Virus record (IMG/VR): IMGVR_UViG_3300009540_000001
Location: 108,375 to 172,374 of that record
DNA from: a virus
Taxonomy: Duplodnaviria > Caudoviricetes
Length of the DNA stretch: 64,000 bases
Strand: one strand, 5' to 3'
A program made the position numbers and the translations under genes. Below the pieces are notes generated by a model. That model worked only from the letters and a program-made list of their open reading frames with translations, searched no databases and was not told the origin of the DNA. Within the stretch, counting starts at the first letter, position 1. Every line of letters starts with the position of its first letter. Of this stretch, positions 14,618 to 44,039 are shown one piece after another.

Positions 14618-14872
14618 TCAGTCGAAGACGTCGCGGGCGTAGTTGTACCCGTCGATGAAAGCCTCGTTCTCCTCCTCGTAAATCTCCGCGTCGAGATCCC
14701 AAGGAACGCCCGGGCCGTCGCCCTTCCAGTGGCCGTAGCCCCAGCCGTCGGTCAGCAGCTGTGTTCCTCCGCCCCCGCTCGGGCCCTGGCCCTCGTACAC
14801 GGTCTTCGGGTCGGTGGCATACCCCCAGGCCCCGGCCCCCGTTCCCCCGCCGCGCTCATCCCACGCGGGCAT
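14618..14872 (-). CDS. GDG/YEE family peptide (cluster A)
   Basis: DGWGYG..KGDGPG...IYEEE. Confidence 0.7.
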   Translation of the reverse strand: MPAWDERGGGTGAGAWGYATDPKTVYEGQGPSGGGGTQLLTDGWGYGHWKGDGPGVPWDLDAEIYEEENEAFIDGYNYARDVFD

Positions 14873-15653
14873 ACTTCTCGCGCAACTTCTTTTCCACAGC
14901 CTCCTTCTGTACCATCAGCTCGCTCTTCGCCTCCTCTGCCTGCTCCTTCATCGTCTCGTAGAAGTACGTGTCGTCCCCGTCCGAGTCGATGCCCCAGACG
15001 CTCGACTCCCCGCGCACCGTCACGCCCTCGACGAGCTCGAGCGTCGCGACGACCTCAACCCCGTAGTACCACCAGGACTCCCCGTAGCTCTCGATGCGCG
15101 CGACGTCGCGGGCGATGTACTCCCGGGCCTTCAGGTCAGCGGCGGACTTCGAGTAGCCGCGCTCCCAGAGGCCTCCGAAGTAGTCGGAGAAGTTCTGCTG
15201 AAGCTTGACGTACTTGTACTCGTTCCTCCCAGGGTTGACCCGCTTGATGCACGTGTCCTCTCGGTTCCTCTCGCCCTCCCTACGCTCACGCTCTTGCGTC
15301 GCCTTGTCCGCCCAAGGCCGTACCCGGTACTTCCCGACGTGCATGACGTCCGAGTCGTCGGTCATCACGCCCGGGTAATCCCGGTCCGTGTCGTTGTCGG
15401 GCGTCACCCGGATGATGTACTGGATCTTCGGCTGCTCCCCCGTGTCTCCGAGGTCGGGGGCATCGCCGAGCGGCTCCTCCCACGTCTGGCGCTCATTCTT
15501 TGGCTCGAGCCTCCGCGCCTCCGCCCACTCCACGGCGGGGCTCTTCTTCAGGACGCTGAAAGCGGCGCGCGCGCCGTACGTCTCGCGCGCGGCCTGGACC
15601 TTGCGCAGTCGGCGAATGTCGATCGTCGGCGCCTTGTAGATGTTTCCTTGCAT
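14856..15653 (-). CDS. Hypothetical protein (MQGNIYK...)
   Basis: AAGGAG SD; start reassigned; 265 aa. Confidence 0.7.
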   Translation of the reverse strand: MQGNIYKAPTIDIRRLRKVQAARETYGARAAFSVLKKSPAVEWAEARRLEPKNERQTWEEPLGDAPDLGDTGEQPKIQYIIRVTPDNDTDRDYPGVMTDDSDVMHVGKYRVRPWADKATQERERREGERNREDTCIKRVNPGRNEYKYVKLQQNFSDYFGGLWERGYSKSAADLKAREYIARDVARIESYGESWWYYGVEVVATLELVEGVTVRGESSVWGIDSDGDDTYFYETMKEQAEEAKSELMVQKEAVEKKLREKYARVG

Positions 15654-15663
15654 TGCGGTCTCC

Positions 15664-15876
15664 TTAGTACATGTCGTTTCGTAGCCACTTCTCTTCGTAC
15701 GCGTGGCGCACGGGCGTCCAGCGGTCGTTGGGACTTCCGCCCCACGCCTCGCCGTACCCTCGGCCATTGCCGTTGCCGTCCCACCCCCGGACGAGAGGCG
15801 GCACACCGTCGCCCGAGCCGTTGGGAAATACGGGGCTTTGCCCAAGGAGGTAGGAGCCTTGGTCGTACTCCGGCAT
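15664..15876 (-). CDS. GDG/YEE family peptide (cluster A)
   Basis: MPEY...GSGDG...DGNGNG...AYEEK; TGATG overlap. Confidence 0.7.
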   Translation of the reverse strand: MPEYDQGSYLLGQSPVFPNGSGDGVPPLVRGWDGNGNGRGYGEAWGGSPNDRWTPVRHAYEEKWLRNDMY

Positions 15877-16124
15877 CAGTACCTCTCCCAGTCGTACCCC
15901 GCCCGATACGCGTACGGCGGCGCCGGCAGCACGCGCGAACGATCCCAGCCTGCGGAGAAGTCCACGACGCACGCGCCGCCGTCGCCGCGACGGAGCTCGT
16001 TGTCGTATGCGAATGGGAGGCCAAGGCCGTCCCCATCCCCTTTCAAATACCACCCTAGCTGTACATCCCCGTTGCCGTCGGAGTCGTACCCCGGCGGCAA
16101 CTGGGGTTTATTCTCTCGAGACAT
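15876..16124 (-). CDS. GDG family peptide (cluster A)
   Basis: DSDGNGD...KGDGDG...RGDGG; GGAGGT SD. Confidence 0.7.
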   Translation of the reverse strand: MSRENKPQLPPGYDSDGNGDVQLGWYLKGDGDGLGLPFAYDNELRRGDGGACVVDFSAGWDRSRVLPAPPYAYRAGYDWERY

Positions 16125-16200
16125 GTGCACCTCCGAGGGCTTGTACCCGGAAGTGCGCGGCGTTTACGGAGTAAAGAGAGCCCCCCGGCTCTCTCGTCTC

Positions 16201-18119: not shown

Positions 18120-18402
18120 CCCACACCCGCTCGAGCTCCACCAGCGGCGCCTGCGTCTTCGCCGCCTCGTACTTTTCTCGGGCGGTCTTCGCCTTCTGCT
18201 CGAGCTCTTGAAGGTTCAGGAGCTCCTTCTTCAGGAACACGTCTCTGGCGTCCTCTGCGCTGTCCGACAGCGTGCACTCATGGAAGATGCGCCCGTGACT
18301 GCTCACGACGAGACGCTCGTCGAGCGTGTCTCCGGTGTTGAGCTCTTGCACGATGAGCTTGCCGTCATGTGTTGTGCGGCCATCTGTGATGTACTTCTTC
18401 AT
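18103..18402 (-). CDS. Hypothetical protein with coiled coil; paralogue of 9379-9612
   Basis: ATGA overlap with upstream peptide gene. Confidence 0.65.
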   Translation of the reverse strand: MKKYITDGRTTHDGKLIVQELNTGDTLDERLVVSSHGRIFHECTLSDSAEDARDVFLKKELLNLQELEQKAKTAREKYEAAKTQAPLVELERVWVKERC

Positions 18403-18653
18403 TCGTCTATCTCCCAGTCGCTTGCCCAGCTCTCGTACTGCGCGCGGAGCTTGCTGATCTCGTAGTCGTCTTCGTCGAGGGCGAAACGTATCCCGCCGCC
18501 CCCGGTCGTGTTCCCGCACTGGATCTGCGTGTGCGTCGCGGAGCTCGTTCCATCCCCCCAGCCACCCCCATCGGCCGTGTCGTACTGCGCCCCGAAACGC
18601 CATATGTACTCGTCGTAGGCGTAGACGCTGCGAGGGTTTTCTTCGTAGCTCAC
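18399..18653 (-). CDS. GDG/YEE family peptide (cluster B)
   Basis: QYDTADGGGWGDG...QYES. Confidence 0.75.
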   Translation of the reverse strand: MSYEENPRSVYAYDEYIWRFGAQYDTADGGGWGDGTSSATHTQIQCGNTTGGGGIRFALDEDDYEISKLRAQYESWASDWEIDE

Positions 18654-18853
18654 GGATCTACGCCTTCCTCGTAGCGTTTCTGGACGCGGTATCCGAACGT
18701 GAAGTCGCTGCTGCTCCCTCCCTGCGTGTCACCGTTCTGAACCATGCCCCACCCGTCGCCCCAGCCATCGCCTCCCGACGTGTTGTACTGCGGGCCGACG
18801 CATCCCAGCTGGTCAGGGTCTACGCGGTAAAGGTCGCGCGCGTTGTGCCTCAT
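18650..18853 (-). CDS. GDG/YEE family peptide (cluster B)
   Basis: QYNTSGGDGWGDGWG...RYEEG. Confidence 0.75.
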   Translation of the reverse strand: MRHNARDLYRVDPDQLGCVGPQYNTSGGDGWGDGWGMVQNGDTQGGSSSDFTFGYRVQKRYEEGVDP

Positions 18854-19074
18854 CCTCTCCTCGGCCCTTCTCGGTATTCGGGATACGGGTCACGAACCTG
18901 GCGTCGGTACGCTTCGCCGTTGGCGCCCATTCCGTCCCCCATGCCGTAGATGTGCCACCCGTCTCCGTACCCGTCTCCGGGAGCTTGGTACGGCGTCGCG
19001 TGAACGCCCCCTAGAGCCCCCGCGCTCCCGCCCCCAAGGGGGTACTCCCGGCCGGCGTCGTGCTCGTAGCTCAT
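18850..19074 (-). CDS. GDG/YEE family peptide (cluster B)
   Basis: MSYEHD...APGDGYGDGW...EYRE. Confidence 0.75.
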   Translation of the reverse strand: MSYEHDAGREYPLGGGSAGALGGVHATPYQAPGDGYGDGWHIYGMGDGMGANGEAYRRQVRDPYPEYREGPRRG

Positions 19075-19250
19075 GCGTTGTACTCCCTTGGTTCGTCGTA
19101 CTCGAACGCGCTCGCGTCGAAGTACCCGTTGCCGCTCGGAAGGGCGCACCACGGCTGAGCCATGCGACCCTCGTAGAAGTCGTAGCCTTCGTAGGGGCAG
19201 ACCCCGTGGCCATCGCCGTCGCGTTCGACCGCGTCGGAGACGCGCTTCAC
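19071..19250 (-). CDS. GDG/YEE family peptide (cluster B)
   Basis: GTG start; RDGDGHG...EYDE. Confidence 0.7.
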   Translation of the reverse strand: MKRVSDAVERDGDGHGVCPYEGYDFYEGRMAQPWCALPSGNGYFDASAFEYDEPREYNA

Positions 19251-19543
19251 GCCGTCAGCTTCTTGCGGATCTGCACGAGCCCTTGCTCCCCCGGCTCCTC
19301 CGGGTGCGGATGCGGGTGCGAGTGCCCAGGGCTCTTGAGCTTCACGACGACGCCCATCGCCTCGATCTCCGCCATGGGCACGCCCAGCAGCTCCTCGGCC
19401 TGCTCGCGCAAGCTCAGGCGATGCTCGTGCGGCATGTCGTCCTCGGGGACCTCGACGTCGATGGTGATGACGGTGCGCTGCGTCGCCGCGTCGTGCAGGT
19501 ACGTCAGGGTGGTTTTCTTTAGGTCTTCTCGTCCTTGTTTCAT
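19247..19543 (-). CDS. FtsH ternary-system X3-like protein
   Basis: TLTYLHDAATQRTVITIDVE..EDDMPHEH; recognised from memory of the fvmX3 family. Confidence 0.5.
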   Translation of the reverse strand: MKQGREDLKKTTLTYLHDAATQRTVITIDVEVPEDDMPHEHRLSLREQAEELLGVPMAEIEAMGVVVKLKSPGHSHPHPHPEEPGEQGLVQIRKKLTA

Positions 19544-19791
19544 CGCGTGATCTCCTCGTAGGCGTTTTGAATCGCGGCGCCTTGATACGGCTGTCCAACC
19601 GCGTAGGCGTCATCGTCGTATCCGGCGGGCGGCCACTCGACGTCCCCGTCCATCCCGCCCTGCTGCGCGGTGCCGTACCCGTCGCCGTGGCCGTTGCCGC
19701 TTTCGGTGTTGAACTGCGTCTCGAGGCGTGCGGCGTCGTAGAAGGCCTCGTTCACGCCGTAAAGGTTGCCTGGGTGGCGCTTGAAGCTCAC
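19540..19791 (-). CDS. GDG/YEE family peptide (cluster B)
   Basis: QFNTESGNGHGDGYG...AYEEI. Confidence 0.75.
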   Translation of the reverse strand: MSFKRHPGNLYGVNEAFYDAARLETQFNTESGNGHGDGYGTAQQGGMDGDVEWPPAGYDDDAYAVGQPYQGAAIQNAYEEITR

Positions 19792-20360
19792 GCCTTCACC
19801 ACCACCCGCACCTCATACGTCCCGCCCACGTCGCCCCGCTCGTTCAACGACTCGAGCGTCCCCATCTCTCGCGCGCGCTGCTCGATGGCCTCGCGGTACG
19901 TTCGGTTCAGCAGGACTTGCAGCTCCTGCCTCGCTTGCGGCTCGAGCGCTGTCAGACGCGCCAGGTTCTCGCGCTCGGTCTTCTCTTTGGCCTTCACCTT
20001 CTCGGCCTCGTAGATGCGGTCGCGGGCCTGCTCCTCCGTCTCGTCCTGCCGTACGACGCCCTTCACCTCGATCGCGGTGACCGTGGTCGTCCGCGTCACC
20101 GTGATCTCCTTGCCGTCGGGCGAGAGGCGCATCTCGGCCTCCTCGAGCGCGCGCGTCAACGAGCCGTCCGGGTGCTCCGTCCAGCCCGCCTCGCGCATGC
20201 GGGCCTTGAGCGCTTCGACCATCCCCGAGTTCGGCAGGATCGGAAGCATCTTCACGTGCAGTGTCACGACGTCTTTGCTGTTGACGTCTTCTCCGTCTTT
20301 CTTGGTGAGGATGATGCTGATGGGCTCGAGTTCCAGTTCCAAGTTCATTCCGCAGGGCAT
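19788..20360 (-). CDS. FtsH ternary-system X5-like protein
   Basis: LPILP...GW...LNRTYREAIEQRAREMG...YEVRVVVK; recognised from memory of the fvmX5 family. Confidence 0.55.
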   Translation of the reverse strand: MPCGMNLELELEPISIILTKKDGEDVNSKDVVTLHVKMLPILPNSGMVEALKARMREAGWTEHPDGSLTRALEEAEMRLSPDGKEITVTRTTTVTAIEVKGVVRQDETEEQARDRIYEAEKVKAKEKTERENLARLTALEPQARQELQVLLNRTYREAIEQRAREMGTLESLNERGDVGGTYEVRVVVKA

Positions 20361-20363
20361 GGG

Positions 20364-20600
20364 TCAGTCCTCCAGGTCCAAGGCTGCCAAGTTGATCATG
20401 TAGGTCGCCGGGTTCGAGTCCTCTGACTCGTCCGAGTCGTACTCGTTGTGGATGTCTTCGTACGCCGCCTGGCCGACGCCGCCGTCGCCCTCGGAGGTGC
20501 AGTTGTCTGCGAGGGTCTCGAGGACCGACCACACGTCGCCGTTCGTGAGAAGCGTGTCGGAGCCGTAGCCGTTGCCGTCTTCGCACATGACGTAGGACAT
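20364..20600 (-). CDS. GDG/YEE family peptide (cluster B)
   Basis: EDGNGYG...EGDGG...AYED. Confidence 0.65.
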   Translation of the reverse strand: MSYVMCEDGNGYGSDTLLTNGDVWSVLETLADNCTSEGDGGVGQAAYEDIHNEYDSDESEDSNPATYMINLAALDLED

Positions 20601-20605
20601 CCGAA

Positions 20606-21079
20606 TCACGGCGCCCACCACGCAGGCGGCTTCCGATGATGCGCCCACCGCGCGAACGCACTCTTGTCCTTCAGATAGAAGGTTCGATACGCCGCGACGG
20701 CGTCAGGTCCGCGATAGGCCTCGGGCATCGTCTGCACGAACGGCGTGCGCCGTACTTGTGTAAACACGAGTTCGGGCGCCCGGACCTTTACGGCGTGAAG
20801 AACCTGGCGCGCCGCATGAACACCCAAGAAGCGCAGGGTGTACTCGTCACACAGCGCGAAGCCGTGGGCGAGCGCCCACTCGAAGTTGCCTCGCGACGCG
20901 CCTACCCACTTGGTAGCGGGATGGCCGGTGTGCGAAGGCTTGTAGCCGACGTCGAGCCCCTGGGAGCGTACGACCGTCGAGAGCATCTGCGCCGTCTCCG
21001 TGGGCATCTTTACGACGTGTTGGTCGCAGGCCATGCGGGCGGCGGTGACGGGATGTACGTGAAGTACGAAGAGGTTCAT
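20606..21079 (-). CDS. Pyrimidine dimer DNA glycosylase (endonuclease V)-like protein
   Basis: MNLFVL...CDQHVVKMPTETAQMLST...HP..KW...QTMP...AYRTFY...K..FARW. Confidence 0.8.
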   Translation of the reverse strand: MNLFVLHVHPVTAARMACDQHVVKMPTETAQMLSTVVRSQGLDVGYKPSHTGHPATKWVGASRGNFEWALAHGFALCDEYTLRFLGVHAARQVLHAVKVRAPELVFTQVRRTPFVQTMPEAYRGPDAVAAYRTFYLKDKSAFARWAHHRKPPAWWAP

Positions 21080-21294
21080 CGCCCGACGTTCCCCGCGTTC
21101 TGCTCGTACTGAAAGCTCGCGTGGCACTTCACCTGCCGATCGAGCGCGACGTCCCCGCCGTCCCCACCGGAGAAACCCCAGACGCCGTCTGCGTAGCCCG
21201 CGCCCCAGCCGTCGCCGGTGATGCCGGCTTGATCAAAGCCGTACACGCCGGACAGGGCGCCATCGCCGTCCGGGCTTCGTCCCTGTTCGTTCAT
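21076..21294 (-). CDS. GDG/YEE family peptide (cluster B)
   Basis: PDGDG...TGDGWG...GGDGG...QYEQ. Confidence 0.75.
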   Translation of the reverse strand: MNEQGRSPDGDGALSGVYGFDQAGITGDGWGAGYADGVWGFSGGDGGDVALDRQVKCHASFQYEQNAGNVGR

Positions 21295-21476
21295 CGCGGT
21301 CTCTCCCTCTCGTACTCCTGCTGCACGTTGCTGCACTCGTGCTCCGCAAACCCGTCCCCGTCCGACATCCCCCAAGCGTCGTCCGTGAAGCCCGAACCCC
21401 AGCCGTCGCCGGACTTTTCGAGGTGGCCGTAGGTGCTGGAGAGGAAGCCGTCGCCGGTCCAGTGCGGGGCGCTCAT
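21291..21476 (-). CDS. GDG/YEE family peptide (cluster B)
   Basis: TGDG...SGDGWG...DGDG...EYER. Confidence 0.75.
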   Translation of the reverse strand: MSAPHWTGDGFLSSTYGHLEKSGDGWGSGFTDDAWGMSDGDGFAEHECSNVQQEYERERPR

Positions 21477-21715
21477 GCCTCGTCCACATACGTGAGCCCG
21501 TACCAGTAGTACGGAAGCCACTCGTTCTGCCCGCAGCCGTCGCCAGGGCCGTAGTTGAAGCACCCGTCGCCGAAGCAATCGCCGGCTTCGTTCTCGCGCT
21601 CCACGAACTCGCCTGTGATGTCGTTGAAGCCGAGCCATGTCTCGCCTTCCGAGCCTGTGCTGTCGCCGTCGCCGCTCGCGTGCGCGCGGCCACACTTGAC
21701 GTTGTCTCGGTCCAT
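21473..21715 (-). CDS. GDG family peptide (cluster B)
   Basis: SGDGD...FGDGC...PGDGCG...YVDE. Confidence 0.7.
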   Translation of the reverse strand: MDRDNVKCGRAHASGDGDSTGSEGETWLGFNDITGEFVERENEAGDCFGDGCFNYGPGDGCGQNEWLPYYWYGLTYVDEA

Positions 21716-21737
21716 CAGTAGTCGTCCTCCTCGTAGC

Positions 21738-21920
21738 TCATCGCCGCTCACGCCCCGCGCGTTGGTAGATGCGGTACACGGTTCCCATCACGACGAAGAG
21801 CCACTCGGGCAGGCGACTGCCGCCGTCTTCGTTGTATGGCGGGCTCGCCGATCCGCTCATCGGGTACCCGTCCCCGTCTCCGAACGCCCCCGCGTTCGGT
21901 GCGTAGTAACTCGTCGTCAA
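21738..21920 (-). CDS. GDG family peptide (cluster B); YEE tail lies in another frame
   Basis: FGDGDGY; followed by mini-ORF MSYEEDDY. Confidence 0.6.
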   Translation of the reverse strand: MTTSYYAPNAGAFGDGDGYPMSGSASPPYNEDGGSRLPEWLFVVMGTVYRIYQRAGRERR

Positions 21921-22126
21921 TCCGGCCATACGCTCTCCTCGTGGGGCCCGTACGCCCACATCCCGTACTCGTCTCGGTGCTCGTAGGTGTCGCGGTAGAA
22001 CGCGCCGTCCGCGCGCGTCTCGATGACGCCAATCGGCGTACCGAATCCGTCGTCGTCGCTCGTCAGGCACGGCGCGCCGCGCCCGTCGCCGGAGAAGTGC
22101 ACGCGTTCGCCACGCTCTTGCGTCAC
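21917..22126 (-). CDS. GDG/YEE family peptide (cluster B)
   Basis: SGDGRG...DDGFG...HEE. Confidence 0.7.
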   Translation of the reverse strand: MTQERGERVHFSGDGRGAPCLTSDDDGFGTPIGVIETRADGAFYRDTYEHRDEYGMWAYGPHEESVWPD

Positions 22127-22326
22127 AGCTCCAACCTCCTCCGCGTCGCTTCCATCGCCTTCACGTCGTCCCCTGCGTCTTGGTAGTCACTTCGTATGAA
22201 CGAGCCTCGGTAGTACGTGTTCGGCGCGCGATAGGGGTTCTCGCCCCAGTTGATGTAGATGAGGTACGCGCCGCCGTCGCCGTCTTGGCCGAAGGCGGCG
22301 GAGTCTTCCCGGGGTGTGCGTCTCAT
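22123..22326 (-). CDS. GDG family peptide (cluster B)
   Basis: MRRTP...QDGDGG...YQD. Confidence 0.7.
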   Translation of the reverse strand: MRRTPREDSAAFGQDGDGGAYLIYINWGENPYRAPNTYYRGSFIRSDYQDAGDDVKAMEATRRRLEL

Positions 22327-22592
22327 GTGTCTCCCTTGACGGAGTTACTCGCGAGGATCGTGCGGATGTCGTTCTGGTACGTCATCAGCGTGAACTTCGT
22401 CTTGAGTATCCTCGGCGCTGCGAAGTTCACCTCGGGTGCGTTGTCTTCGTATGACGGGCGCGGGGAGCCGCCGTCGTCGTAGACGTACGCGTCGAGCGCG
22501 AAAGCGCCCCCGTACTTTCGGTACGCGTACTGGGCGCTCCCGTCGCCGTCATCGAAGCGCGAGGTGTGATACGGCGTCGGTGTTCTTCTCAT
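22323..22592 (-). CDS. GDG/YEE family peptide with C-terminal extension (cluster B)
   Basis: MRRTP...DDGDGS...SYED. Confidence 0.7.
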   Translation of the reverse strand: MRRTPTPYHTSRFDDGDGSAQYAYRKYGGAFALDAYVYDDGGSPRPSYEDNAPEVNFAAPRILKTKFTLMTYQNDIRTILASNSVKGDT

Positions 22593-22795
22593 CGTGTCTC
22601 CTCGTATCGCCATCGAATCCACGTAGGCCGAATCTCGTAGTTGATGAGCACGTCCTTCCCGTCGTTCCCCTCGAACCACCCGATATTCAGGGCTCGAGCG
22701 CCGTTGCCGATGCCGTCGCCGTCGGCCCAGGGGAACGCGCTCTTTGCGCCCCGCCCGTCGCCGTCCTGCTCACACGCCATGGGTCGGTATTTCAT
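22589..22795 (-). CDS. GDG/YEE family peptide (cluster B)
   Basis: QDGDGRG...ADGDGIGNG...RWRYEET. Confidence 0.75.
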   Translation of the reverse strand: MKYRPMACEQDGDGRGAKSAFPWADGDGIGNGARALNIGWFEGNDGKDVLINYEIRPTWIRWRYEETR

Positions 22796-22980
22796 CGACC
22801 CTCCTCATACCGTCGCTGCGTCCACCCGCCCTGCGTCTCGTGGTCCGCCTCGTCGTCGGCGTCGTCCCACAAGATGCTCTTGCCCCACGTCCCTACGCCG
22901 CGTCCGCTCCCCTGAACGTCAGCAGGAAAAGGGACGAGCCCTTCGCCCCCGTTCGAGGCCACGGTTGGTCGTTGTTTCAT
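22792..22980 (-). CDS. GDG/YEE family peptide, divergent; first gene of cluster B
   Basis: GGEG..GSGRG...QRRYEEG. Confidence 0.7.
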   Translation of the reverse strand: MKQRPTVASNGGEGLVPFPADVQGSGRGVGTWGKSILWDDADDEADHETQGGWTQRRYEEGR

Positions 22981-27348: not shown

Positions 27349-27355
27349 GCGCGCC

Positions 27356-27926: not shown

Positions 27927-27956
27927 GTTCTTCGAGCTCCTCGTACGAGGTTCGCC

Positions 27957-28235: not shown

Positions 28236-28251
28236 AAGGAACCTCCACGAT

Positions 28252-34283: not shown

Positions 34284-34319
34284 CCCTCGTAGATCTCCTG
34301 CACCCGCTCGCACATCACC

Positions 34320-34790: not shown

Positions 34791-34981
34791 TTTACTTCTG
34801 ACTCCTCTTCCTCTTCCTCGTCGTACAGGATTCTCGCGTAGTCATCCGACCCGTCGCCGCCCTGGACCCCGGACCCCCCATCCCCCCACCCATCCCCGTA
34901 CGGATTCGCGTAAGAGATGACCGGCGACCACCCATCCCCGAACCGATCTACGCCTTCGCCGCGTTTGTACATGGCGCACAC
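34787..34981 (-). CDS. GDG/YEE family peptide (cluster D)
   Basis: FGDGW..YGDGWGDGG..GGDG..YDEEE. Confidence 0.75.
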   Translation of the reverse strand: MCAMYKRGEGVDRFGDGWSPVISYANPYGDGWGDGGSGVQGGDGSDDYARILYDEEEEEESEVK

Positions 34982-34985
34982 ACCT

Positions 34986-35207
34986 TCACCACGCCCAGCC
35001 CTCTTCGTACTGCATCTTCACGCGGTGGTAGGACACGCTGTCCCCGTTCTCCCCGAACGTCCGCGTCTGTCCCTCGCACGCGTAGTCCGAAGGATTCGCA
35101 CCGCCGTCGCCGGCATACCTGGTGCGCCACCCCGCTTCGGCGGCCTCCGGCATGCTGCCTCCATCCCCCCACTGGCGAACGCTGTTCTCGACTCTCGAGT
35201 GCCTCAT
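34986..35207 (-). CDS. GDG/YEE family peptide (cluster D)
   Basis: WGDGG..AGDGG...QYEEG. Confidence 0.75.
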   Translation of the reverse strand: MRHSRVENSVRQWGDGGSMPEAAEAGWRTRYAGDGGANPSDYACEGQTRTFGENGDSVSYHRVKMQYEEGWAW

Positions 35208-35374
35208 GTGTCCTCGTCATACTCGTACCTCGGCACGCGCTCGTAGTTGTCCCCGTAGCCATCCCCGACTTTCCCGTCCCCCGTGCCGCCCCCGAGGCCG
35301 TTTACGAAGTGCCACTGTCCGAGCTCGGTGGGCTCGAGATACTGGCGGCCCTCCCAGTACATCTTCGTCTTCAT
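35204..35374 (-). CDS. GDG/YEE family peptide (cluster D)
   Basis: TGDGKVGDGYGD...YDED. Confidence 0.75.
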   Translation of the reverse strand: MKTKMYWEGRQYLEPTELGQWHFVNGLGGGTGDGKVGDGYGDNYERVPRYEYDEDT

Positions 35375-35580
35375 GTCTGATACTCCTCGCGCACGTCCTC
35401 GTCGTCCCCGTCGCCGTCCCCGTACCCAGGGCCGTCTCCGAACGCGGGCCCGAGAATGCCGTCGCCGTACGCCGTAAAGCTCCACCAAGGGTCGAGGCCT
35501 GTGCCGTCGCCGGGGGCGACGTATGAGCCGTACTCGTTGAGATATTGGACTTCGTCGAGGATGAGGCGAACAACGCTCAC
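35371..35580 (-). CDS. GDG family peptide (cluster D)
   Basis: APGDGTG..YGDG..FGDGPGYGDGDGD..EEY. Confidence 0.75.
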   Translation of the reverse strand: MSVVRLILDEVQYLNEYGSYVAPGDGTGLDPWWSFTAYGDGILGPAFGDGPGYGDGDGDDEDVREEYQT

Positions 35581-35759
35581 GTCACACCTTCTGCTTCCTC
35601 ATACCCCCCAAGAAACGCCCCACCATCCCCGCTCCACTTCGCGAGGTGCATCTCTTCCCGCGCCCACCCATCCCCGCGAAGATCCCCCGTGTAGCTGTCG
35701 CCCCAGCCGTCGCCGGGGTCGGAGGGCCAGGTCCGGTAGACGTCCGGCGTATGTCTCAT
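35577..35759 (-). CDS. GDG/YEE family peptide (cluster D)
   Basis: PGDGWGD..RGDGW..SGDGG..YEEA. Confidence 0.75.
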   Translation of the reverse strand: MRHTPDVYRTWPSDPGDGWGDSYTGDLRGDGWAREEMHLAKWSGDGGAFLGGYEEAEGVT

Positions 35760-35956
35760 TCGACCTCCTCCTCGTACGCCCAAGGCTGCCCCATACCGTC
35801 CGCCCCGAACGCCTCGTCCCTGCGGACGAAGACGCCGCGCGGGTCGAGCATGAAGTAGTGGTCCCCGTCGCCGTACGTGTTCCCGTGCGGCGATTGCCCC
35901 CACCCGTCGCCGTAGCGTATCCGCCCGTCGAAGTAGTTCCGGGGCATGCGCTTCAC
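35756..35956 (-). CDS. GDG/YEE family peptide (cluster D)
   Basis: YGDGWG..YGDGD..GADG..WAYEEE. Confidence 0.75.
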   Translation of the reverse strand: MKRMPRNYFDGRIRYGDGWGQSPHGNTYGDGDHYFMLDPRGVFVRRDEAFGADGMGQPWAYEEEVE

Positions 35957-36156
35957 GCGTCTCTCCACTCCTGCGAGTACCGCAGCGTCATGACGCTGTA
36001 GTCGCTGCCACCGCGACAGCGCCCGAGCGTCTCCGGGTCATACCCGCTGCCGCCCATGAACGCGTACTGCGTATCCCCGTAGCCGTCCCCCGGGGCGCCG
36101 CCGAGGTCGAGCTCCAGGTCCTCCTGGTAGCTCTCTGCGCACTCTTGGTAGCTCAC
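35953..36156 (-). CDS. GDG family peptide (cluster D)
   Basis: APGDGYGD...RYSQE. Confidence 0.7.
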   Translation of the reverse strand: MSYQECAESYQEDLELDLGGAPGDGYGDTQYAFMGGSGYDPETLGRCRGGSDYSVMTLRYSQEWRDA

Positions 36157-36341
36157 TCCCCGACCTCCTCGTACCAAACCCTCACGTCTTCTTCCCAGGA
36201 CCTGCGCTGCCCTCGCCCATCACCCCCGGAGCCGAGCTTCGCGTTCCCGTACCCATCCCCGGGGGCGTACTGCGGGGAGTAGTACCCATGCGGCAGAAAG
36301 TTGTCTCCTGTGTACGAGACGTTCCCTTGTACCCGCTTCAC
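36153..36341 (-). CDS. GDG/YEE family peptide (cluster D)
   Basis: APGDGYG..GGDGRG..WYEE. Confidence 0.75.
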   Translation of the reverse strand: MKRVQGNVSYTGDNFLPHGYYSPQYAPGDGYGNAKLGSGGDGRGQRRSWEEDVRVWYEEVGE

Positions 36342-36514
36342 TCCTCCTCCTCATACCTGCGTTGCAGCGTCACGCACGCCTCCTGCTGCGGCTCCCACGG
36401 GAGGGAGTCCTGCGTCACGCCATACCCCTCTCCATCGCCGGCCCAGTGGCCCCAGCGCATCGGCGCGCCGAACCCGTACCCCCGGTACCCCATGTTGTTC
36501 GGGCGCTCTCTCAC
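36338..36514 (-). CDS. GDG/YEE family peptide (cluster D)
   Basis: AGDGEGYG...QRRYEEEE. Confidence 0.75.
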   Translation of the reverse strand: MRERPNNMGYRGYGFGAPMRWGHWAGDGEGYGVTQDSLPWEPQQEACVTLQRRYEEEE

Positions 36515-36711
36515 CGCCACTCCGTGTCGGCATACCGTTCGATCGCGTCGTTGAAGTTATCCCCCACCGGGAAGTTCCCCAGCACGCCTTCCCCGTCCCC
36601 GTCCATCCAGCCGTTAGGGCCGTCGCCGCCCCCGTCGCCGCTGCTGAATCCTTCGTGACCGAGGCCGTACCCGCCTCCGTCCGCGAGGGAGTTCCATGCG
36701 CGATGTCTCAC
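36511..36711 (-). CDS. GDG family peptide (cluster D)
   Basis: SGDGGGDG..DGDGEG..RYAD. Confidence 0.75.
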   Translation of the reverse strand: MRHRAWNSLADGGGYGLGHEGFSSGDGGGDGPNGWMDGDGEGVLGNFPVGDNFNDAIERYADTEWR

Positions 36712-36869
36712 GTGAAAGTCTCCCCGTACACCCACGCCAAGTCGACGTCTTCGTACTCCTCTTGAATGTCCAAGAACGCATCCAGCATCGCGCCGTCCCC
36801 CAGGTACCCTCGGCCCCCATCCCCCCACCCGTCGCCCCCGACCAAGGCGTTGCTCGCGCCGTCTTTCAT
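36708..36869 (-). CDS. GDG/YEE family peptide (cluster D)
   Basis: GGDGWGDGG..LGDG..EYED. Confidence 0.7.
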   Translation of the reverse strand: MKDGASNALVGGDGWGDGGRGYLGDGAMLDAFLDIQEEYEDVDLAWVYGETFT

Positions 36870-36883
36870 CTCTGTCTTCCCCT

Positions 36884-37087
36884 TCAGCGCCCGAGCCCGC
36901 TGTTGCCGCCGTACCTTCCATAGACGTCGATGAAGTAGCCCCCGCTGATCCACGCAGGCTCGCCGGGGCCGTTGCCGTCGGCGTAGCCGAGGGGGTTGAG
37001 CCCGTCACCACTCAGGCTCACGCGCCGCTCAGTACCCCGGCGCTCATCCCCGCGATCGAACGGAACGTCGTAGTTGCTGTCTGGCAT
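36884..37087 (-). CDS. GDG family peptide (cluster D)
   Basis: SGDGL..ADGNGPG. Confidence 0.65.
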   Translation of the reverse strand: MPDSNYDVPFDRGDERRGTERRVSLSGDGLNPLGYADGNGPGEPAWISGGYFIDVYGRYGGNSGLGR

Positions 37088-37106
37088 CTTTTACCTCGTA
37101 AAGGCC

Positions 37107-37316
37107 TCACGGCGCCGCTTGATAGTCCGTCCTCATCCAGTCGTAGACGAAGCTGTCCCCCGTCCCACTTCCGACCGGACCGTCTGCGAAGCCGTCTGCA
37201 CCCAGGCCTCCGCGCTGCCGCAGGGTGTCATTGAAGTACGTCCCGTAGGGCCCGCAGCCCGCGCCATCGCCCGAGGCCTGCAACGTCCCTGGAGCCTGCA
37301 CGCCTGTTTCTTTCAT
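37107..37316 (-). CDS. GDG family peptide (cluster D)
   Basis: SGDGAG..GADGFADG..TGD..DYQ. Confidence 0.7.
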   Translation of the reverse strand: MKETGVQAPGTLQASGDGAGCGPYGTYFNDTLRQRGGLGADGFADGPVGSGTGDSFVYDWMRTDYQAAP

Positions 37317-37483
37317 CCGCCAAACCTCTCCTGCCACCAGTACCCCCCGTAGCCGTCCCTCACGTCGTACGTGCTGTCTCCTCCGCGCTCGTAGTTCGAG
37401 TCGCCGACGTTGTCTCCTGCGTACCCGTCGCACGTGTCCCCGTAGCCGTCCCCGTCTTGAAGGAGGCCGGTGTCGTCGATCAT
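37313..37483 (-). CDS. GDG family peptide (cluster D), 56 aa, absent from ORF track
   Basis: MIDDTGLLQDGDGYGDTCDGYAGD...WWQERFGG; read manually. Confidence 0.7.
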   Translation of the reverse strand: MIDDTGLLQDGDGYGDTCDGYAGDNVGDSNYERGGDSTYDVRDGYGGYWWQERFGG

Positions 37484-37484
37484 G

Positions 37485-37679
37485 TCAGTCCGGATCCTCC
37501 TCGTACGTATCGCCCCAGTACGACCGCAGAAGGCTCGTGCCGTTGCCCGCGCCGACGTTGCCGTCCCCGTACCCGCCGCCGCCCAGGTCGTTGACGCGGT
37601 CAGCTACCACGCACTCGATGTTCCCGTCGCCGTCGACGCGGTCGGAGTAGTTGTAAGATCGAGGCTTCAGCGTTCCCAT
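37485..37679 (-). CDS. GDG/YEE family peptide; first gene of cluster D
   Basis: DGDGN..YGDG..GNG..TYEED; GGAGGAG SD. Confidence 0.75.
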   Translation of the reverse strand: MGTLKPRSYNYSDRVDGDGNIECVVADRVNDLGGGGYGDGNVGAGNGTSLLRSYWGDTYEEDPD

Positions 37680-37782
37680 GCAGGGCACTCCTCCGTACGC
37701 CGTAAAGAGAACACCCCCGAGGGCCACCACGGCCCTCGGAGGCGTTCTACGTTCTTGTACCTGTTTCAGTCCTGTCTTTCGG

Positions 37783-38670
37783 CTACTCGGCCCACTCCCG
37801 CACGAGCGACCCTTCCGGGTACGCCTTGAGGAAGTGCGGCACCGCCCCCGCGTGGTTCCCGATCTTCATGAGCTTGCGTCCCTCGACGTACGCGAACAAC
37901 GCCGACGTCGCTCGCTTCGCGATCTCGAGCCGACCCTCCGTGCTCTTCTCGCCCTGATGCGTGGCGACGTGATTGCGCAAGGCGAGCACCGGGTCGCCTG
38001 CGACGAGGCCTTCCCCGGTGCAGTACGCGTCGACGAAGGCCGCGACCTTCTCCGGCGAAGTCCGGTACGCGAACAAGGCCGGACCGGCGATGTACCCGAC
38101 CTTCATCATGGTCCGGTCGGCTTGCGCCTGGAACCACTCCAGGGCCGCAGGGTTCTCGGCCGCGAAGTGGAGCACCTGCTCCGCTTTCAGGCCAGGAGTG
38201 CGGTCGTTCATCACAACCGCCGCAAGCATGTTCACGGCAGCCGACGTGCGCGTCGGCTTCGCGAGACCCATGAGCCCCGCGTTCTGCGCAACGGTACGCG
38301 GGCGTCCGTCGTCGAAGAACATGAGCGCGTTCTCGGCGACGCCGAACGAGACGTTCATGATGATGGGCATGTCCAGCGCCGTGATGGCGAGCAGCCGGTG
38401 CTGCCCGTTGAGAAGGTGCCCGGAGACGGACGTGCAGATGGGCGTCCCGATGTCGGGCTGCCACTTGCTGTCGGCCATCAAGGCCCTGTACTTCTCGACG
38501 GTCTTCATCGAGATGGGCCGGTTCTTGGCATTGGTCTTCAAGAGCCCGTCCGCGATCTCCGGCGAGATCTCGAGGAGGCCCGACCACGAAGCCGTGATGG
38601 GGAGCGACTTGAAGTCGCCAGACGCCACCAGGAGTGTGCGGCCTTTGTGCAAGCGCGATTCGAGTTTCAT
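37783..38670 (-). CDS. ParB/Srx-like N-terminal domain protein
   Basis: ISPEIA..LL..N.KNRPIS...W....PI......LLNGQHRLLAI. Confidence 0.75.
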   Translation of the reverse strand: MKLESRLHKGRTLLVASGDFKSLPITASWSGLLEISPEIADGLLKTNAKNRPISMKTVEKYRALMADSKWQPDIGTPICTSVSGHLLNGQHRLLAITALDMPIIMNVSFGVAENALMFFDDGRPRTVAQNAGLMGLAKPTRTSAAVNMLAAVVMNDRTPGLKAEQVLHFAAENPAALEWFQAQADRTMMKVGYIAGPALFAYRTSPEKVAAFVDAYCTGEGLVAGDPVLALRNHVATHQGEKSTEGRLEIAKRATSALFAYVEGRKLMKIGNHAGAVPHFLKAYPEGSLVREWAE

Positions 38671-38693: not shown

Positions 38694-38879
38694 TCAGTTG
38701 TCGTCTTCGTACTCTTGCGTGACGCCGTACAGCGCCACGTCGATCCACTCGTCGATCTCGTCGAGATCAGCGTCTCCGACATAGCCCGGGCCGAGGCCAT
38801 CCCCGTAGCCGTTGCCCGAGGAGTACAGCCCGTACCCGCCTCCGAATCCCCCGGTGTAGTTCCACGCCGTCCGCCTCAC
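38694..38879 (-). CDS. GDG/YEE family peptide (cluster E)
   Basis: VRRTAW..SGNGYGDG...EYED. Confidence 0.75.
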   Translation of the reverse strand: MRRTAWNYTGGFGGGYGLYSSGNGYGDGLGPGYVGDADLDEIDEWIDVALYGVTQEYEDDN

Positions 38880-38995
38880 GGCCCGCCGCACTCGGCGAGC
38901 GCGTTGCCCGCGACGCCCGCGACGAGGAACAGCGCGAGCAGCCAGAGGCCCCAGTAGGACGGGGCGTGCGGATCTCCCTCTATCTCAGGGCGCAT
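38876..38995 (-). CDS. Small membrane peptide (39 aa)
   Basis: ...YWGLWLLALFLVAGVAG...; coupled; read manually. Confidence 0.45.
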   Translation of the reverse strand: MRPEIEGDPHAPSYWGLWLLALFLVAGVAGNALAECGGP

Positions 38996-39070
38996 GCGTT
39001 GAACCGCCCCTCGTGCGTGAGCGTGCACTGAACAAACCCCGGCTCCGAGGAGCTGACCCGCCGGGATCGC

Positions 39071-39427
39071 TCACGCCACCCTCCTCGACCCGCCGTCCCC
39101 CAGCACGCCGCGCTCGGCGTCGTCCACGGCCGGGAGCTTGAGCCGCTCCGGCACGCGCCGACGGACGAAGGTGTCGGCCACCGAGAGCTTCACGGTGACC
39201 TCCTTCGAGAAGAACGCGCGCGCCATGCGCGTCGCGAGCAGCTCGTCGTCGCCCTCCTCGAGCAGGGCGCGCAGCTCGACCCGTAACGGGGGCGGGATCG
39301 ACGGCCAGCACGCGACGACCTCGTTGCGGAGGTAGACGAGGGCGATCTCCCTGCTCAGGCAGGGAACGACGTACGAGTGGCTGTACGCCGACTTCGAGAA
39401 GTAGTGCGCGCCATTGGGATCTCTCAT
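39071..39427 (-). CDS. Hypothetical protein
   Basis: 118 aa behind a hairpin leader. Confidence 0.55.
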   Translation of the reverse strand: MRDPNGAHYFSKSAYSHSYVVPCLSREIALVYLRNEVVACWPSIPPPLRVELRALLEEGDDELLATRMARAFFSKEVTVKLSVADTFVRRRVPERLKLPAVDDAERGVLGDGGSRRVA

Positions 39428-39456
39428 GACTGTACCTTTGTCCTTTCAAGAAACGA

Positions 39457-39489
39457 CACGAGCCGCAGAGAGACTCTCTGCGGCTCGTG
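39457..39489 (-). terminator. 15-bp hairpin; terminator or 5' leader structure
   Basis: CACGAGCCGCAGAGA / TCTCTGCGGCTCGTG, then TCGTTTCTT on minus strand. Confidence 0.6.
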
Positions 39490-39515
39490 ATCTTATACCT
39501 TGTTTCTAGGGCTGT

Positions 39516-39710
39516 TTACTCACCGTAGTCCGTGCGATCCCTCTCCCTCCTTTGCCGCGCGCCCCACCGCCATGCGTACATCCACATGTCTCCTCTGACG
39601 CCTTGCAGGCCGTCCGGACAGAAGTAGCCGTTGCCGTCCCGCCCACCGTTGTAGAACCCTGCGCTGTCACCGTTGCCGTCGTCGCCGACGCCCTCGCCGA
39701 CGTGCCTCAT
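39516..39710 (-). CDS. GDG family peptide (cluster E)
   Basis: GDDGNGD..DGNG...DYGE. Confidence 0.7.
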   Translation of the reverse strand: MRHVGEGVGDDGNGDSAGFYNGGRDGNGYFCPDGLQGVRGDMWMYAWRWGARQRRERDRTDYGE

Positions 39711-39892
39711 GTCCCGCTGTCCTCGTACGCCAGCTGCTGCGAAGGCACCAGCCACAACAGCTCCCCGGGACGCTGCCGATTCTGGTCCCCATTCGGGGCG
39801 CAGGCGACGTAGCCGTCGCCCTGCCAGTTCGCCCAGAAGCCGGTGCCCCGGCCGTCGCCGTTGCTGTCGGCTCCTTCGCCCTGTGTGTTCAT
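39707..39892 (-). CDS. GDG/YEE family peptide (cluster E)
   Basis: NGDGRG..QGDGY...AYED. Confidence 0.75.
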   Translation of the reverse strand: MNTQGEGADSNGDGRGTGFWANWQGDGYVACAPNGDQNRQRPGELLWLVPSQQLAYEDSGT

Positions 39893-40083
39893 GCCCCGCT
39901 CCACTCGTAGGACCACCGCAGGATCGGCAGCGGGTAGTTCCCTAGAACGGCCGCGTTCAGCGCATGGCCGGAGTCGGAACGAAACCCACCGTCGCCGTCT
40001 TCATCCCCAAGACGAAGGGCCCCGAGAATGCACGAGCCGTCGCCGTCGCCTTCGGGATCTACGCAGTCTGCACGTTGCTTCAC
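39889..40083 (-). CDS. GDG/YEE family peptide (cluster E)
   Basis: EGDGDG..DGDGG...RWSYE. Confidence 0.75.
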   Translation of the reverse strand: MKQRADCVDPEGDGDGSCILGALRLGDEDGDGGFRSDSGHALNAAVLGNYPLPILRWSYEWSGA

Positions 40084-40262
40084 ACATCACTCGCCGCTTC
40101 GATCTTCTCGTGGATCAGCGCCTTCTGCGTCACCGACAAGATCTTCAGCTTCTCCGTGAAGCTCTTCTCGAGCTTCTTCTTCTCCTTCGCATCGTTCTCT
40201 TTCGCGAACGCCTCCCACACTCCGAACACGTGATCGACCATCAAGGCGTCGTTGTCAGGCAT
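40080..40262 (-). CDS. Small hypothetical protein
   Basis: 60 aa; GGAGG SD. Confidence 0.55.
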   Translation of the reverse strand: MPDNDALMVDHVFGVWEAFAKENDAKEKKKLEKSFTEKLKILSVTQKALIHEKIEAASDV

Positions 40263-40279: not shown

Positions 40280-40954
40280 TTACAGACTCTCGAGTCTCTC
40301 CGCCGTGTTGTACCGAGTCTGGTACCGATCCTCGACGCGGTCGCCCCCGTCGCCCCATCCGCCGCCCGTGTCCGCGCACGTCGGCGGCGTGCCGTACCCA
40401 TCGCCCGCAGGTGCGCTGGTCCAGCGCACGACCTTGAGGCGTTCCTTCGTGCTGTCCACGAGCTCTTTCCACGCTTCCTCCATCGCGGCGTTGTGCTCGG
40501 CGTACGCCACCTCGATCGCGACGCAGAGCGCCTCGAACGTCTCCCCCGACACAAGCTTCTCGGACGTGTACCCGGGTTCGCCATTGTCGGTGAGCGAGAG
40601 AACCGACTCGATCTCCTCCACGGCGTCGTCTTCGCTGTCGTCGTCGACGCGTACGTTGAGCGAGCTGAGCAGATCGCGCGGCTCGTCCCATGCGTCTGTG
40701 AAGCTCGCGTCGGCTTGGTACTCCCCGGTGTCGATGCGCTCGAGTCTGAAGTACCCGTACGAGCACTCCTTGCGCGGCGCGGACGAGATCGTGACGCGCA
40801 CGCCTTGCTCGACCTGGGCCTTGATGGCGTCGTACATGCCAGGTTCTCGATCCTCCCAGCCCTCGCGCTCCGATTCCCAGACGGCGTACTTGAGGTCGAG
40901 TTCGTAGTGTGTGCGCTCCTCGGCGTCGGCGTCCACGCCCCTCATGCCGCTCAC
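40280..40954 (-). CDS. Acidic protein with a C-terminally fused GDG module
   Basis: Ends VRWTSAPAGDGYG...GGGWGDGG...RYQTRY. Confidence 0.65.
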   Translation of the reverse strand: MSGMRGVDADAEERTHYELDLKYAVWESEREGWEDREPGMYDAIKAQVEQGVRVTISSAPRKECSYGYFRLERIDTGEYQADASFTDAWDEPRDLLSSLNVRVDDDSEDDAVEEIESVLSLTDNGEPGYTSEKLVSGETFEALCVAIEVAYAEHNAAMEEAWKELVDSTKERLKVVRWTSAPAGDGYGTPPTCADTGGGWGDGGDRVEDRYQTRYNTAERLESL

Positions 40955-42964: not shown

Positions 42965-43165
42965 TCAGCCCCGAGGGTCCTCCTCGTATTGCAGGCGCAG
43001 CAACGCCAGGACGTACGGGGAGTAGGTCAACTCCCCGCCGCCTGAGCCGTCTCCGTTCGTGAAGGGTGGCTTGAGGTAGCCAGGGTCGTCTCGGTGCAAG
43101 CGCTCCTTGAGTGGGTACCCCTCGCCCTCGCCTCGAGCCCAGACGCCGGACGCGCGGGTTCTCAC
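42965..43165 (-). CDS. GDG/YEE family peptide (cluster F)
   Basis: GEGEGY..NGDGSG...QYEED. Confidence 0.75.
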   Translation of the reverse strand: MRTRASGVWARGEGEGYPLKERLHRDDPGYLKPPFTNGDGSGGGELTYSPYVLALLRLQYEEDPRG

Positions 43166-43470
43166 GGCTCCGCGCGCGCCTCCTTCGGAATCCGCCTCGC
43201 GATCGAGGCCAGCAGCGCCGTGAACTGCGTGTGGATCTGCGCGAGCACGCCGAGCGCGTGCACGAGCTCGTGGCCGCCCTCTTCGCCACGGACGATCGGC
43301 CCCGTGGCCTCGTGGAACATGCGGGAGACCTCGGTCTCGGGCATGCCTTGCAAGTGCCGCAAGACGCTCGTAGGCGCGACATCTCGCAGCCGGCAGTCGT
43401 ACGCGCCCACGACGCGCAGGTACGCGAGGCGCTCGGACTTAGTCCTCGGCGCGTAGCTCATGATTCGCAT
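43162..43470 (-). CDS. Hypothetical protein
   Basis: Coupled within cluster F. Confidence 0.5.
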   Translation of the reverse strand: MRIMSYAPRTKSERLAYLRVVGAYDCRLRDVAPTSVLRHLQGMPETEVSRMFHEATGPIVRGEEGGHELVHALGVLAQIHTQFTALLASIARRIPKEARAEP

Positions 43471-43471
43471 G

Positions 43472-43654
43472 TCAGTTCTCCTCATCTTCGTAGAACATGA
43501 AGTCTTCGTACTCGCTTTGAGGTGCCCACCACTTATCCCCCAGGGGGAGGTAGGGCGTCGTGTATCCATCCCCCGTTCCGTTGCCGTCCCTGTAGGCCCG
43601 TAGGGGGCTCTGGCCGTCGCCCAGCCTCCGACTCTCCGGGACTTTCCGTCTCAT
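43472..43654 (-). CDS. GDG/YEE family peptide (cluster F)
   Basis: LGDG..DGNGTGDGY...YEDEE. Confidence 0.75.
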   Translation of the reverse strand: MRRKVPESRRLGDGQSPLRAYRDGNGTGDGYTTPYLPLGDKWWAPQSEYEDFMFYEDEEN

Positions 43655-43851
43655 CTCTCCCCCGCCCCACTCTCTTCGTAGCGTTCTTGCTGCACCCCCT
43701 CGAGCGTGTACGACCCATCCCCATCCCTGCGAAACGGCGTACACGCTCCGTTCCCGTCGGCGAAGCCCATGAATGGGGAGCCACAACCGCAGCCGTCTCC
43801 GGTGTAGCTGCGGTCGCGGTAGGTGATGTACTCCCAGGCGACGGGGGTCAC
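43651..43851 (-). CDS. GDG/YEE family peptide (cluster F)
   Basis: TGDGCG..ADGNG..DGDG..RYEES. Confidence 0.75.
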   Translation of the reverse strand: MTPVAWEYITYRDRSYTGDGCGCGSPFMGFADGNGACTPFRRDGDGSYTLEGVQQERYEESGAGER

Positions 43852-44039
43852 TCGGGCAGCTCCTCGTAGAGCACGTTCGTCATGTTCCCGCCGTCTCCTT
43901 CCCCGTCCCCGGCCTTGGCGTCCCCGTACCCGGCGCCGCCTCCGTTCATCGCCCCACCATCGCCGAAGCCCGTGCCGACGGTGTTCCACATGCCCCCCGC
44001 TCCCTCCCCGCTCCGGGCCTCCCACGCCGTGCGCCTCAC
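43848..44039 (-). CDS. GDG/YEE family peptide (cluster F)
   Basis: VRRTAW..FGDGG..AGDGEGDGG..LYEEL. Confidence 0.75.
   Translation of the reverse strand: MRRTAWEARSGEGAGGMWNTVGTGFGDGGAMNGGGAGYGDAKAGDGEGDGGNMTNVLYEELPE

Follow-up and report, generated by a model that had tools for sequence, protein, structure and literature searches.

The 64,000-nucleotide stretch analysed here (the window; bases 108375-172374, the right third, of a single 172,374-bp phage contig with a GC content of 66%) encodes about 52 copies of a small Gly/Asp-rich protein. We are highly confident that these represent a real, clade-specific and greatly expanded family of micro-proteins whose genes stand in tandem, are translationally coupled, have diversified and are kept under purifying selection. 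In the window the family comprises 51 minus-strand genes of 47-96 amino acids (aa) plus one startless open reading frame (ORF), distributed over six clusters. One additional member lies outside the window (genome 2901-3092). The family totals 10.7 kb and accounts for 52 of the about 234 genes (22%) that were called in the genome with a codon-usage model trained on long ORFs. To our knowledge, no described phage devotes a fifth of its genes to one family of 50-90-aa proteins. A first-pass annotation, made from the sequence alone, had placed 3, 15, 6, 20, 4 and 4 such ORFs in six clusters occupying roughly 11 kb. Both the clusters and the counts were recovered at the same positions, except that the fourth ORF of the fifth cluster has no start codon, which leaves 3, 15, 6, 20, 3 and 4 genes with a start. 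Gene calls by the Joint Genome Institute (JGI) and by Logan on near-identical contigs contain the same small ORFs, and the GC content at third codon positions (GC3) in their called frame is 0.72-0.90.

From the N- to the C-terminus, the members share a layout of M-x-R-x-[P/A], one to four alternating-glycine cores (G-D-G-[W/Y/G]-G), the motif [V/I/L]-[R/Q]-x-x-Y-E-[E/D] and a short acidic tail. We define the family by a length of 47-96 aa, at least one G[DN]G or GxGxG core, a C-terminal Y-[EQ]-[ED] and a location in tandem same-strand arrays, a combination that is present here and recurs in a second phage lineage. The motif G[DN]G occurs 111 times in the 52 members (3,516 residues, 3.16 per 100 aa) and 29 times in the other 182 proteins (0.058 per 100 aa), making the members 55-fold richer. 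Within-protein shuffles of the members contain 15.9 +/- 3.8 copies, which puts the observed number at a z of about 25. GxGxG is found 119 times against 18.7 +/- 4.6 in shuffles, with D foremost at the x positions, followed by Y, G, N and W. The end motif Y[ED][ED] is carried by 34 of 52 members and by 3 of 42 other small proteins. W, Y, G and D are over-represented in the members, K, I, L, A and V are under-represented, and Lys is almost absent; the proteins are acidic, with a median isoelectric point (pI) of 4.4.

The members barely align, as the first-pass annotation had stated: an all-against-all BLASTP search yields just four significant family pairs. The annotation had also suggested looking for a shared profile, and one exists. 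In cross-validation, the median profile score of held-out members is 7.5-9.3 bits, compared with about 0 for shuffles, and 50%-65% of these members score above the 99th percentile of composition-matched shuffles. When the whole genome is scanned in six frames, the only hits are the minus-strand array ORFs, the additional gene at 2901-3092 and the C-terminus of the protein encoded at window positions 40280-40945; no other frame, region or strand is hit by the profile. G[DN]G is spelled by 23 different 9-mers, in line with the earlier claim that codons vary and conservation lies at the protein level. These results confirm a single family, defined at the protein level, in which Gly/Asp/aromatic positions stay constant and the segments separating them vary.

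Related contigs document how the arrays change. Four other sludge runs yielded contigs that match parts of the region at 80-99% identity and skip or replace whole gene units, among them 36710-36896, 39891-40089, 43875-44026 and a 2-kb block at 34112-36152. Contigs of this kind (L077-L082), obtained via 90%-identity clusters, carry the same arrays with orthologues that are 70-98% identical; in L077, the orthologues of cluster 6 are 61-91% identical. The related strains also encode at least 15 members without a counterpart in the window, and one gene (L078:2733-2942) is a chimera of a novel N-terminal half and the C-terminal half of 34011-34283. The copy turnover that the annotation had proposed to look for in related phages is thus visible as gene-sized gains and losses and as chimeric genes.

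A second lineage (L089, L090 and L092; GC 63.5%) was reached via a 43%-identical homologue of the ParB-like neighbour encoded at 37783-38670. Synteny extends to a dCMP deaminase, the ParB-like gene and homologues of 33460-33684 and 39071-39427, all in the same order. About 45-50 like small genes are spread across 19 kb of this lineage, and when the profiles of both lineages are compared with each other, they match over the core and the C-terminal motif with E = 1.3e-5. Within the second lineage, 14 of 45 members in L089 have no orthologue of at least 60% identity in L092. The window, the related strains and the second lineage together contain 172 distinct sequences, which form 129 clusters at 60% identity.

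Selection was assessed on orthologous pairs. The pooled ratio of non-synonymous to synonymous substitution rates (dN/dS) is 0.40 for family orthologues in the window lineage (18 pairs), compared with 0.29 for neighbouring genes, and 0.50 in the second lineage (31 pairs), compared with 0.35 for neighbours. In the second lineage, non-synonymous changes fall below the neutral expectation with a binomial p of 6e-11. G, D, W and Y are conserved at 94.4% between orthologues and other residues at 85.3% (p = 7e-7), which bears out the proposed constant Gly/Asp frame with variable segments. Both the dN/dS values and the preferential retention of these four residues indicate that the genes encode proteins under purifying selection, so the family must matter to the phage. 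The annotation had called the proteins hypervariable. This holds for the great diversity across members and fails for the change within orthologues, which is not fast; the diversity stems from old divergence, recombination and cassette turnover. The same data bear on whether the ORFs are an artefact, either ORFs arising by chance in DNA rich in purines and GC or repeats without coding function. High GC does yield many spurious ORFs, and pairwise similarity is weak here, but dN/dS lies well below 1 in two lineages, and the ORFs stay intact where the flanking gene is 43% identical. Motifs are confined to one frame and strand, motif codons vary, and indels are whole-gene-sized. This evidence contradicts an artefact, to which we assign a negligible probability.

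Most genes in the arrays are joined by their ends. A 4-nt overlap of start and stop codons (ATGA or GTGA) is found at 30 of 52 members and at 37 of 180 other genes. Codon 2 of an overlapping gene must begin with A, which restricts residue 2; in all 67 genes genome-wide that start in such an overlap, it is S, R, K, T, N, M or I. The MR, MK or MS start is thus partly a by-product of the overlap. In the window lineage, YEE is encoded as TAY GAG GAG, lies 2-13 nt before the next start and doubles as the Shine-Dalgarno (SD) sequence of the next gene. An SD of at least 4 nt is present at 30 of 33 junctions after a family gene, compared with 28 of 41 after other overlapping genes. Because 4-nt overlaps with an upstream SD join most genes, whole arrays are probably co-translated from polycistronic mRNA.

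We considered whether the MR/MK start and the YEE end are mere by-products of overlap and SD, and rejected this on the evidence of the second lineage. There, 35 of 45 members have Arg at position 3, encoded by CGC, CGA, CGT, AGA and AGG, and 28 of 45 have Pro or Ala at position 5. In 39 of 45 members the C-terminal motif reads Y-E/Q-D. Its distance from the stop is 2-9 codons, mostly 4-7, which usually puts it out of range for an SD; the acidic/Gly tail supplies the SD instead. Furthermore, three members in the window (26798-27088, 27085-27348 and 27356-27604) have a helix-like C-terminal extension past YEE or HEE, so that the motif sits 27-50 residues from the C-terminus. With these inward motifs, the longer C-terminal motif around it and the second lineage, Y-E-[ED] cannot be just an mRNA signal. 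Conservation of Arg3, the GDG core and Y-E-[ED] is at the protein level, beyond mRNA signals. Of the start and end grammar described in the first-pass annotation, Arg3 and Y-E-[ED] therefore stand as protein features; residue 2 does not, being forced by the overlap, and YEE has its second role as SD.

As far as the searches reach, the family matches no described family, in agreement with the annotation. Ten members searched at E <= 1 gave no Pfam match, including none to HemolysinCabind (PF00353) or EF-hand, and no PHROGs family except one chance-level hit of unknown function. Profiles of both lineages found nothing in the PDB, and one member used as a query found nothing in 50,697 phage records. 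A word search of 5.8 billion proteins and an exhaustive profile search of 1.84 billion representatives returned the window's own proteins only; because the profile is weak, giving true members 20-45 bits, distant relatives could escape such searches. No relatives emerged when IMG/VR was scanned with the ParB-like neighbour from each of the two lineages, or in a scan of a JGI metagenome. A literature search on the family motifs produced nothing on phages, its one motif hit being a paper on activation domains of eukaryotes designed to be acidic and aromatic (PMC11546935). Structure prediction gave no confident fold. AlphaFold2 modelled 18650-18853 from a 51-row paralogue alignment without secondary structure (predicted local distance difference test, pLDDT, of 56), and the 221-aa protein encoded at 40280-40945 from its single sequence at pLDDT 44. 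The ESMFold model from the ESM Atlas reached a pLDDT of 0.30, with no feature hits and meaningless structure neighbours.

A DNA pattern for GDGWGDGWG retrieved only unrelated low-complexity ORFs from IMG/VR. Among unrelated viral contigs, L084:12436, L085:123-232 and L088:3631 contain ORFs of 80-95 aa that consist almost wholly of (Gly-X)n, where X is D, W, Y or N, as in GDGWGDGWGDGYG. They resemble the family in having Gly-alternating stretches such as this within small ORFs. Unlike the family, they show purely dipeptide repeats and lack both terminal motifs, have no profile score and were not seen in arrays. They may form a separate undescribed class of small phage proteins.

By analogy with known systems, the proteins may be co-expressed effectors that interact with the host, for takeover or counter-defence, and we put this forward tentatively. 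The pI of 4.4 with aromatic enrichment, the non-structural position and the lack of a confident fold point weakly in this direction. The family has diversified through tandem duplication, old divergence, recombination between members and whole-gene gain and loss. On the proposed reading, a polycistronic mRNA of the non-structural programme would allow whole arrays to be translated together. Each member would bind a different host protein via flexible, variable acidic/aromatic segments displayed on the constant Gly/Asp frame. The most plausible targets would be nucleic-acid-binding host proteins, for example defence nucleases, with the members acting as inhibitors or decoys, a role that the strong negative charge and the aromatic residues would fit. 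We speculate further that the arrays could be a recombining, co-translated library that serves as a new counter-defence or host-range system, each member neutralising a different host factor, although we consider this doubtful. Such a library would be heritable, held by conserved end 'clasps' and reshuffled cassette-wise between strains, comparable to an antibody or toxin library; this extension is just as speculative. Family identity and host-interaction function taken together give the best explanation as a whole, one that still falls somewhat short of probable.

Several points weigh against the host-interaction reading. Its functional part draws on composition, genomic context and analogy only, and there are no RNA runs among the sequencing runs listed with this DNA. 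The low-confidence models may be an effect of poor alignments instead of true disorder. The neighbours are mostly of unassigned function, so a partner enzyme could be present unrecognised. Finally, a search run with a positive control found no family member in five distant relatives of the phage, large viral contigs whose terminase is 27-30% identical. Virions of this type can therefore be made without the family.

Other functions were weighed against the same observations. The proteins could be packaged and ejected with the DNA, with M-x-R-x-P/A as a capsid-targeting or processing signal and bodies that enter the cell first and meet its defences. The model for this is the internal proteins of T-even phages: IPI, IPII, IPIII and their polymorphic alternatives are small, combine a short conserved N-terminal motif with unrelated bodies and are encoded by tandem genes that differ between phages, and at least one of them, IPI*, is an anti-restriction protein. 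A short conserved N-terminus, a variable body and tandem genes that differ between strains are also seen here. However, T-even phages encode a handful of internal proteins per genome against about 50 members here, and theirs are basic, carry a cleavable capsid-targeting sequence and are encoded near head genes. Here the arrays are surrounded by genes for nucleotide metabolism and helicases, a long way from the head genes, and their products are acidic and almost free of Lys, show no Pfam or PHROG similarity to internal proteins and would amount to an unusual fifty kinds of cargo, which makes this explanation unlikely. We consider it slightly less likely still that the members are disordered 'sticker-spacer' proteins, with Tyr/Trp stickers and Gly/Asp spacers, which build a condensate or matrix for replication or assembly. 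The composition, the pLDDT values of 56 and 0.30 and the coupling, which provides co-expression of many similar species, would suit such a role, yet bulk material requires neither about 130 sequence clusters nor conserved termini.

Two further readings take up suggestions of the first-pass annotation, Ca-binding loops and substrates of a modifying enzyme, and agree poorly with what was found. In one, the members would be metal-dependent (Ca2+) Gly/Asp mini-scaffolds, disordered until ion-bound like RTX beta-rolls and displaying aromatic loops. Like RTX and DxDxDG repeats, the members have Gly/Asp-rich runs with regular Gly spacing and are probably disordered without a ligand; D-G-[DN]-G occurs 23 times in 19 members, and no confident ligand-free fold was obtained. 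The register of the family differs, being G-x-G-x-G with D, Y, W or N at x. DxDxDG is absent from the 52 members (its relaxed form D-x-[DN]-x-[DN]-G occurs three times), and the tandem GGxGxDx[hydrophobic]x of RTX beta-rolls was not found, there being two full nonapeptides in all. No HemolysinCabind or EF-hand hit and no signal peptide or hydrophobic stretch was found in the members, and free Ca2+ is low in the bacterial cytoplasm; Ca-binding loops are thus improbable. In the other, the arrays would encode precursors or substrates for one modifying enzyme, akin to ribosomally synthesised and post-translationally modified peptides (RiPPs) such as prochlorosins, with the conserved ends as recognition sequences. 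Dozens of short, diverse ORFs with common conserved ends agree with this, but the ends are just 3-7 residues long, where a RiPP leader would span tens of residues, and 25 of 52 members lack Cys. A Pfam search of 40 larger proteins of the window and genome revealed no maturase-type domain (radical SAM, YcaO, LanM, ATP-grasp or peptidase) near the arrays, where many neighbours are of unassigned function, and we regard this possibility as very unlikely. The gene pair at 8129-8862, likewise suggested as a partner of the family, could not be linked to it by anything we found. The two genes (8129-8557 and 8560-8862, minus strand) are adjacent paralogues with 40% identity over 79 aa (E = 2e-19) and no Pfam match.

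The favoured reading of host-interaction effectors has parallels in other viruses. Poxvirus host-range genes and the multigene families (MGF) of African swine fever virus (ASFV), known as 'genomic accordions', are tandem arrays of paralogues that take up a large share of the genome, gain and lose copies and act in host interaction. The family resembles these immune-evasion families in its copy-number dynamics, including turnover between close strains. It differs in that the accordions belong to eukaryotic viruses and their products are folded domains of 100-500 aa, whereas the phage proteins are 50-90 aa long, have no predicted fold and are translationally coupled. Ocr, ArdA and Arn are small, strongly acidic DNA-mimic anti-restriction proteins of phages that are usually made early. 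They share small size and acidity with the family but are single-copy folded helical proteins to which no sequence similarity was found.

All arrays are encoded on the minus strand of a non-structural region that adjoins nucleotide-metabolism and helicase genes. Cluster 1 (14618-16124), delimited by ORF lists, GC3 and profile hits, contains family genes at 14618-14872 (84 aa), 15664-15876 (70 aa) and 15876-16124 (82 aa) around a non-family gene at 14856-15653 (265 aa). Cluster 2 (18399-22962), delimited by ATGA/GTGA junctions and the profile, includes fifteen family genes (18399-18653, 18650-18853, 18850-19074, 19071-19250, 19540-19791, 20364-20621, 21076-21294, 21291-21476, 21473-21715, 21738-21929, 21917-22126, 22123-22326, 22323-22592, 22589-22795 and 22792-22962). 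Non-family genes are interleaved at 19247-19543, 19788-20360 and 20606-21079 (Pyr_excise). The second of these, 190 aa on the minus strand, has the Pfam domain fvmX5 ('FtsH ternary system domain X5', E = 7e-20). Over 24 aa, the C-terminal extension of 22323-22592 shares 79% identity with a segment inside a 306-aa structural-region protein (genome 89850-90770, plus strand), and the pair matches at 94% over 47 nt at the nucleotide level. The extension looks like a recently copied gene fragment joined to a family gene.

Cluster 3 (26798-28433) has six family genes at 26798-27088, 27085-27348, 27356-27604, 27577-27744, 27741-27926 and 28275-28433. Cluster 4 (33063-37730) is the largest, with twenty family genes identified by profile, junctions, orthologues and gene-sized indels in related strains (33063-33263, 33260-33463, 33681-33845, 33835-34014, 34011-34283, 34787-34972, 34986-35153, 35204-35374, 35371-35580, 35577-35759, 35756-35956, 35953-36156, 36153-36341, 36338-36514, 36511-36711, 36708-36869, 36884-37087, 37107-37316, 37313-37483 and 37485-37730). 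The 90-aa product of 34011-34283 resembles two fused family units, and non-family genes lie at 33460-33684 and 34320-34790.

Cluster 5 (38694-40086) consists of 38694-38879, 39516-39710, 39707-39892 and the startless ORF 39892-40086. This ORF is family-like, has no ATG, GTG or TTG start, is absent from the related strains, whose contigs skip 39891-40089, and may be a remnant. The fused copy reported in the first-pass annotation is real. It corresponds to a module at 40283-40414 (GDGYG...GGGWGDGG...VEDRYQ) that makes up roughly the C-terminal 45 residues of the 221-aa protein 40280-40945, where the family profile matches residues 178-212 at 19.3 bits; a search for homologues of this protein found none. 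Cluster 6 (42965-43991) contains four family genes (42965-43165, 43472-43654, 43651-43851 and 43848-43991) and a non-family gene at 43162-43470. The functions of genes interleaved with the arrays are mostly unassigned.

Two short sequences recur in the window. TTTAC-N3-GTA[A/C]A gives 12 strand-matches at eight window sites (9687, 10848, 16163, 37090, 45686, 51089, 57030 and 62797), against 0 expected from shuffles. Two full palindromes of this kind stand in short gaps directly upstream of family genes, at 16163 before 15876-16124 and at 37090 before 36884-37087, and the sequence may serve the phage as a promoter or operator. Two minus-strand gaps, 27927-28274 and 39428-39515, contain the 11-mer GGTATAAGATC, upstream of the zinc-ribbon ORF 27957-28235 and of 39071-39427, respectively. 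In the gap 39428-39515, it is followed by a strong hairpin and then a T-run.

The source phage is uncultured, and its DNA is present in activated-sludge sequencing runs. Near-identical contigs (three differences in 20 kb) occur in one JGI and one European Nucleotide Archive (ENA) metagenome. The IMG/VR record is classed as complete with terminal repeats; the repeat is just ~124 bp long and may simply be the assembly overlap of a circular or permuted genome. The contig is identified as a phage by genes for a terminase, a family-A DNA polymerase, a primase-like protein and UvrD and SNF2 helicases, together with nucleotide-metabolism genes. The latter include a dCMP deaminase, ThyX, a dNMP kinase and a 5'-nucleotidase, and a DenV-like glycosylase is also encoded. 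The terminase is at most about 30% identical to those of cultured phages and 26-35% identical to those of IMG/VR contigs of 150-205 kb. A complete transfer-messenger RNA (tmRNA) is encoded at window 8990-9319 on the minus strand (Rfam RF00023, 108.8 bits), for which ARAGORN predicts the tag peptide ANYNAFAAPLLAAA. An ARAGORN call of tRNA-Glu at 30178-30270 was discarded, as Rfam gave no confirmation. In the second lineage, an IS605 OrfB/TnpB-like (Cas12f-like) gene (L092:741-1988, minus strand) is inserted beside the dCMP deaminase and is absent from that place in L089.

The family keeps a huge copy number in two lineages whose flanking gene is 43% identical. Its arrays are a clean example of translational coupling that shapes protein termini. 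They also provide at least 129 naturally occurring variants, built on a single minimal frame whose ends are constant, as a ready-made set for finding interaction partners, be they host defence proteins or others. As a source of inhibitors, the arrays would be new and very rich if the proteins prove to act in counter-defence.

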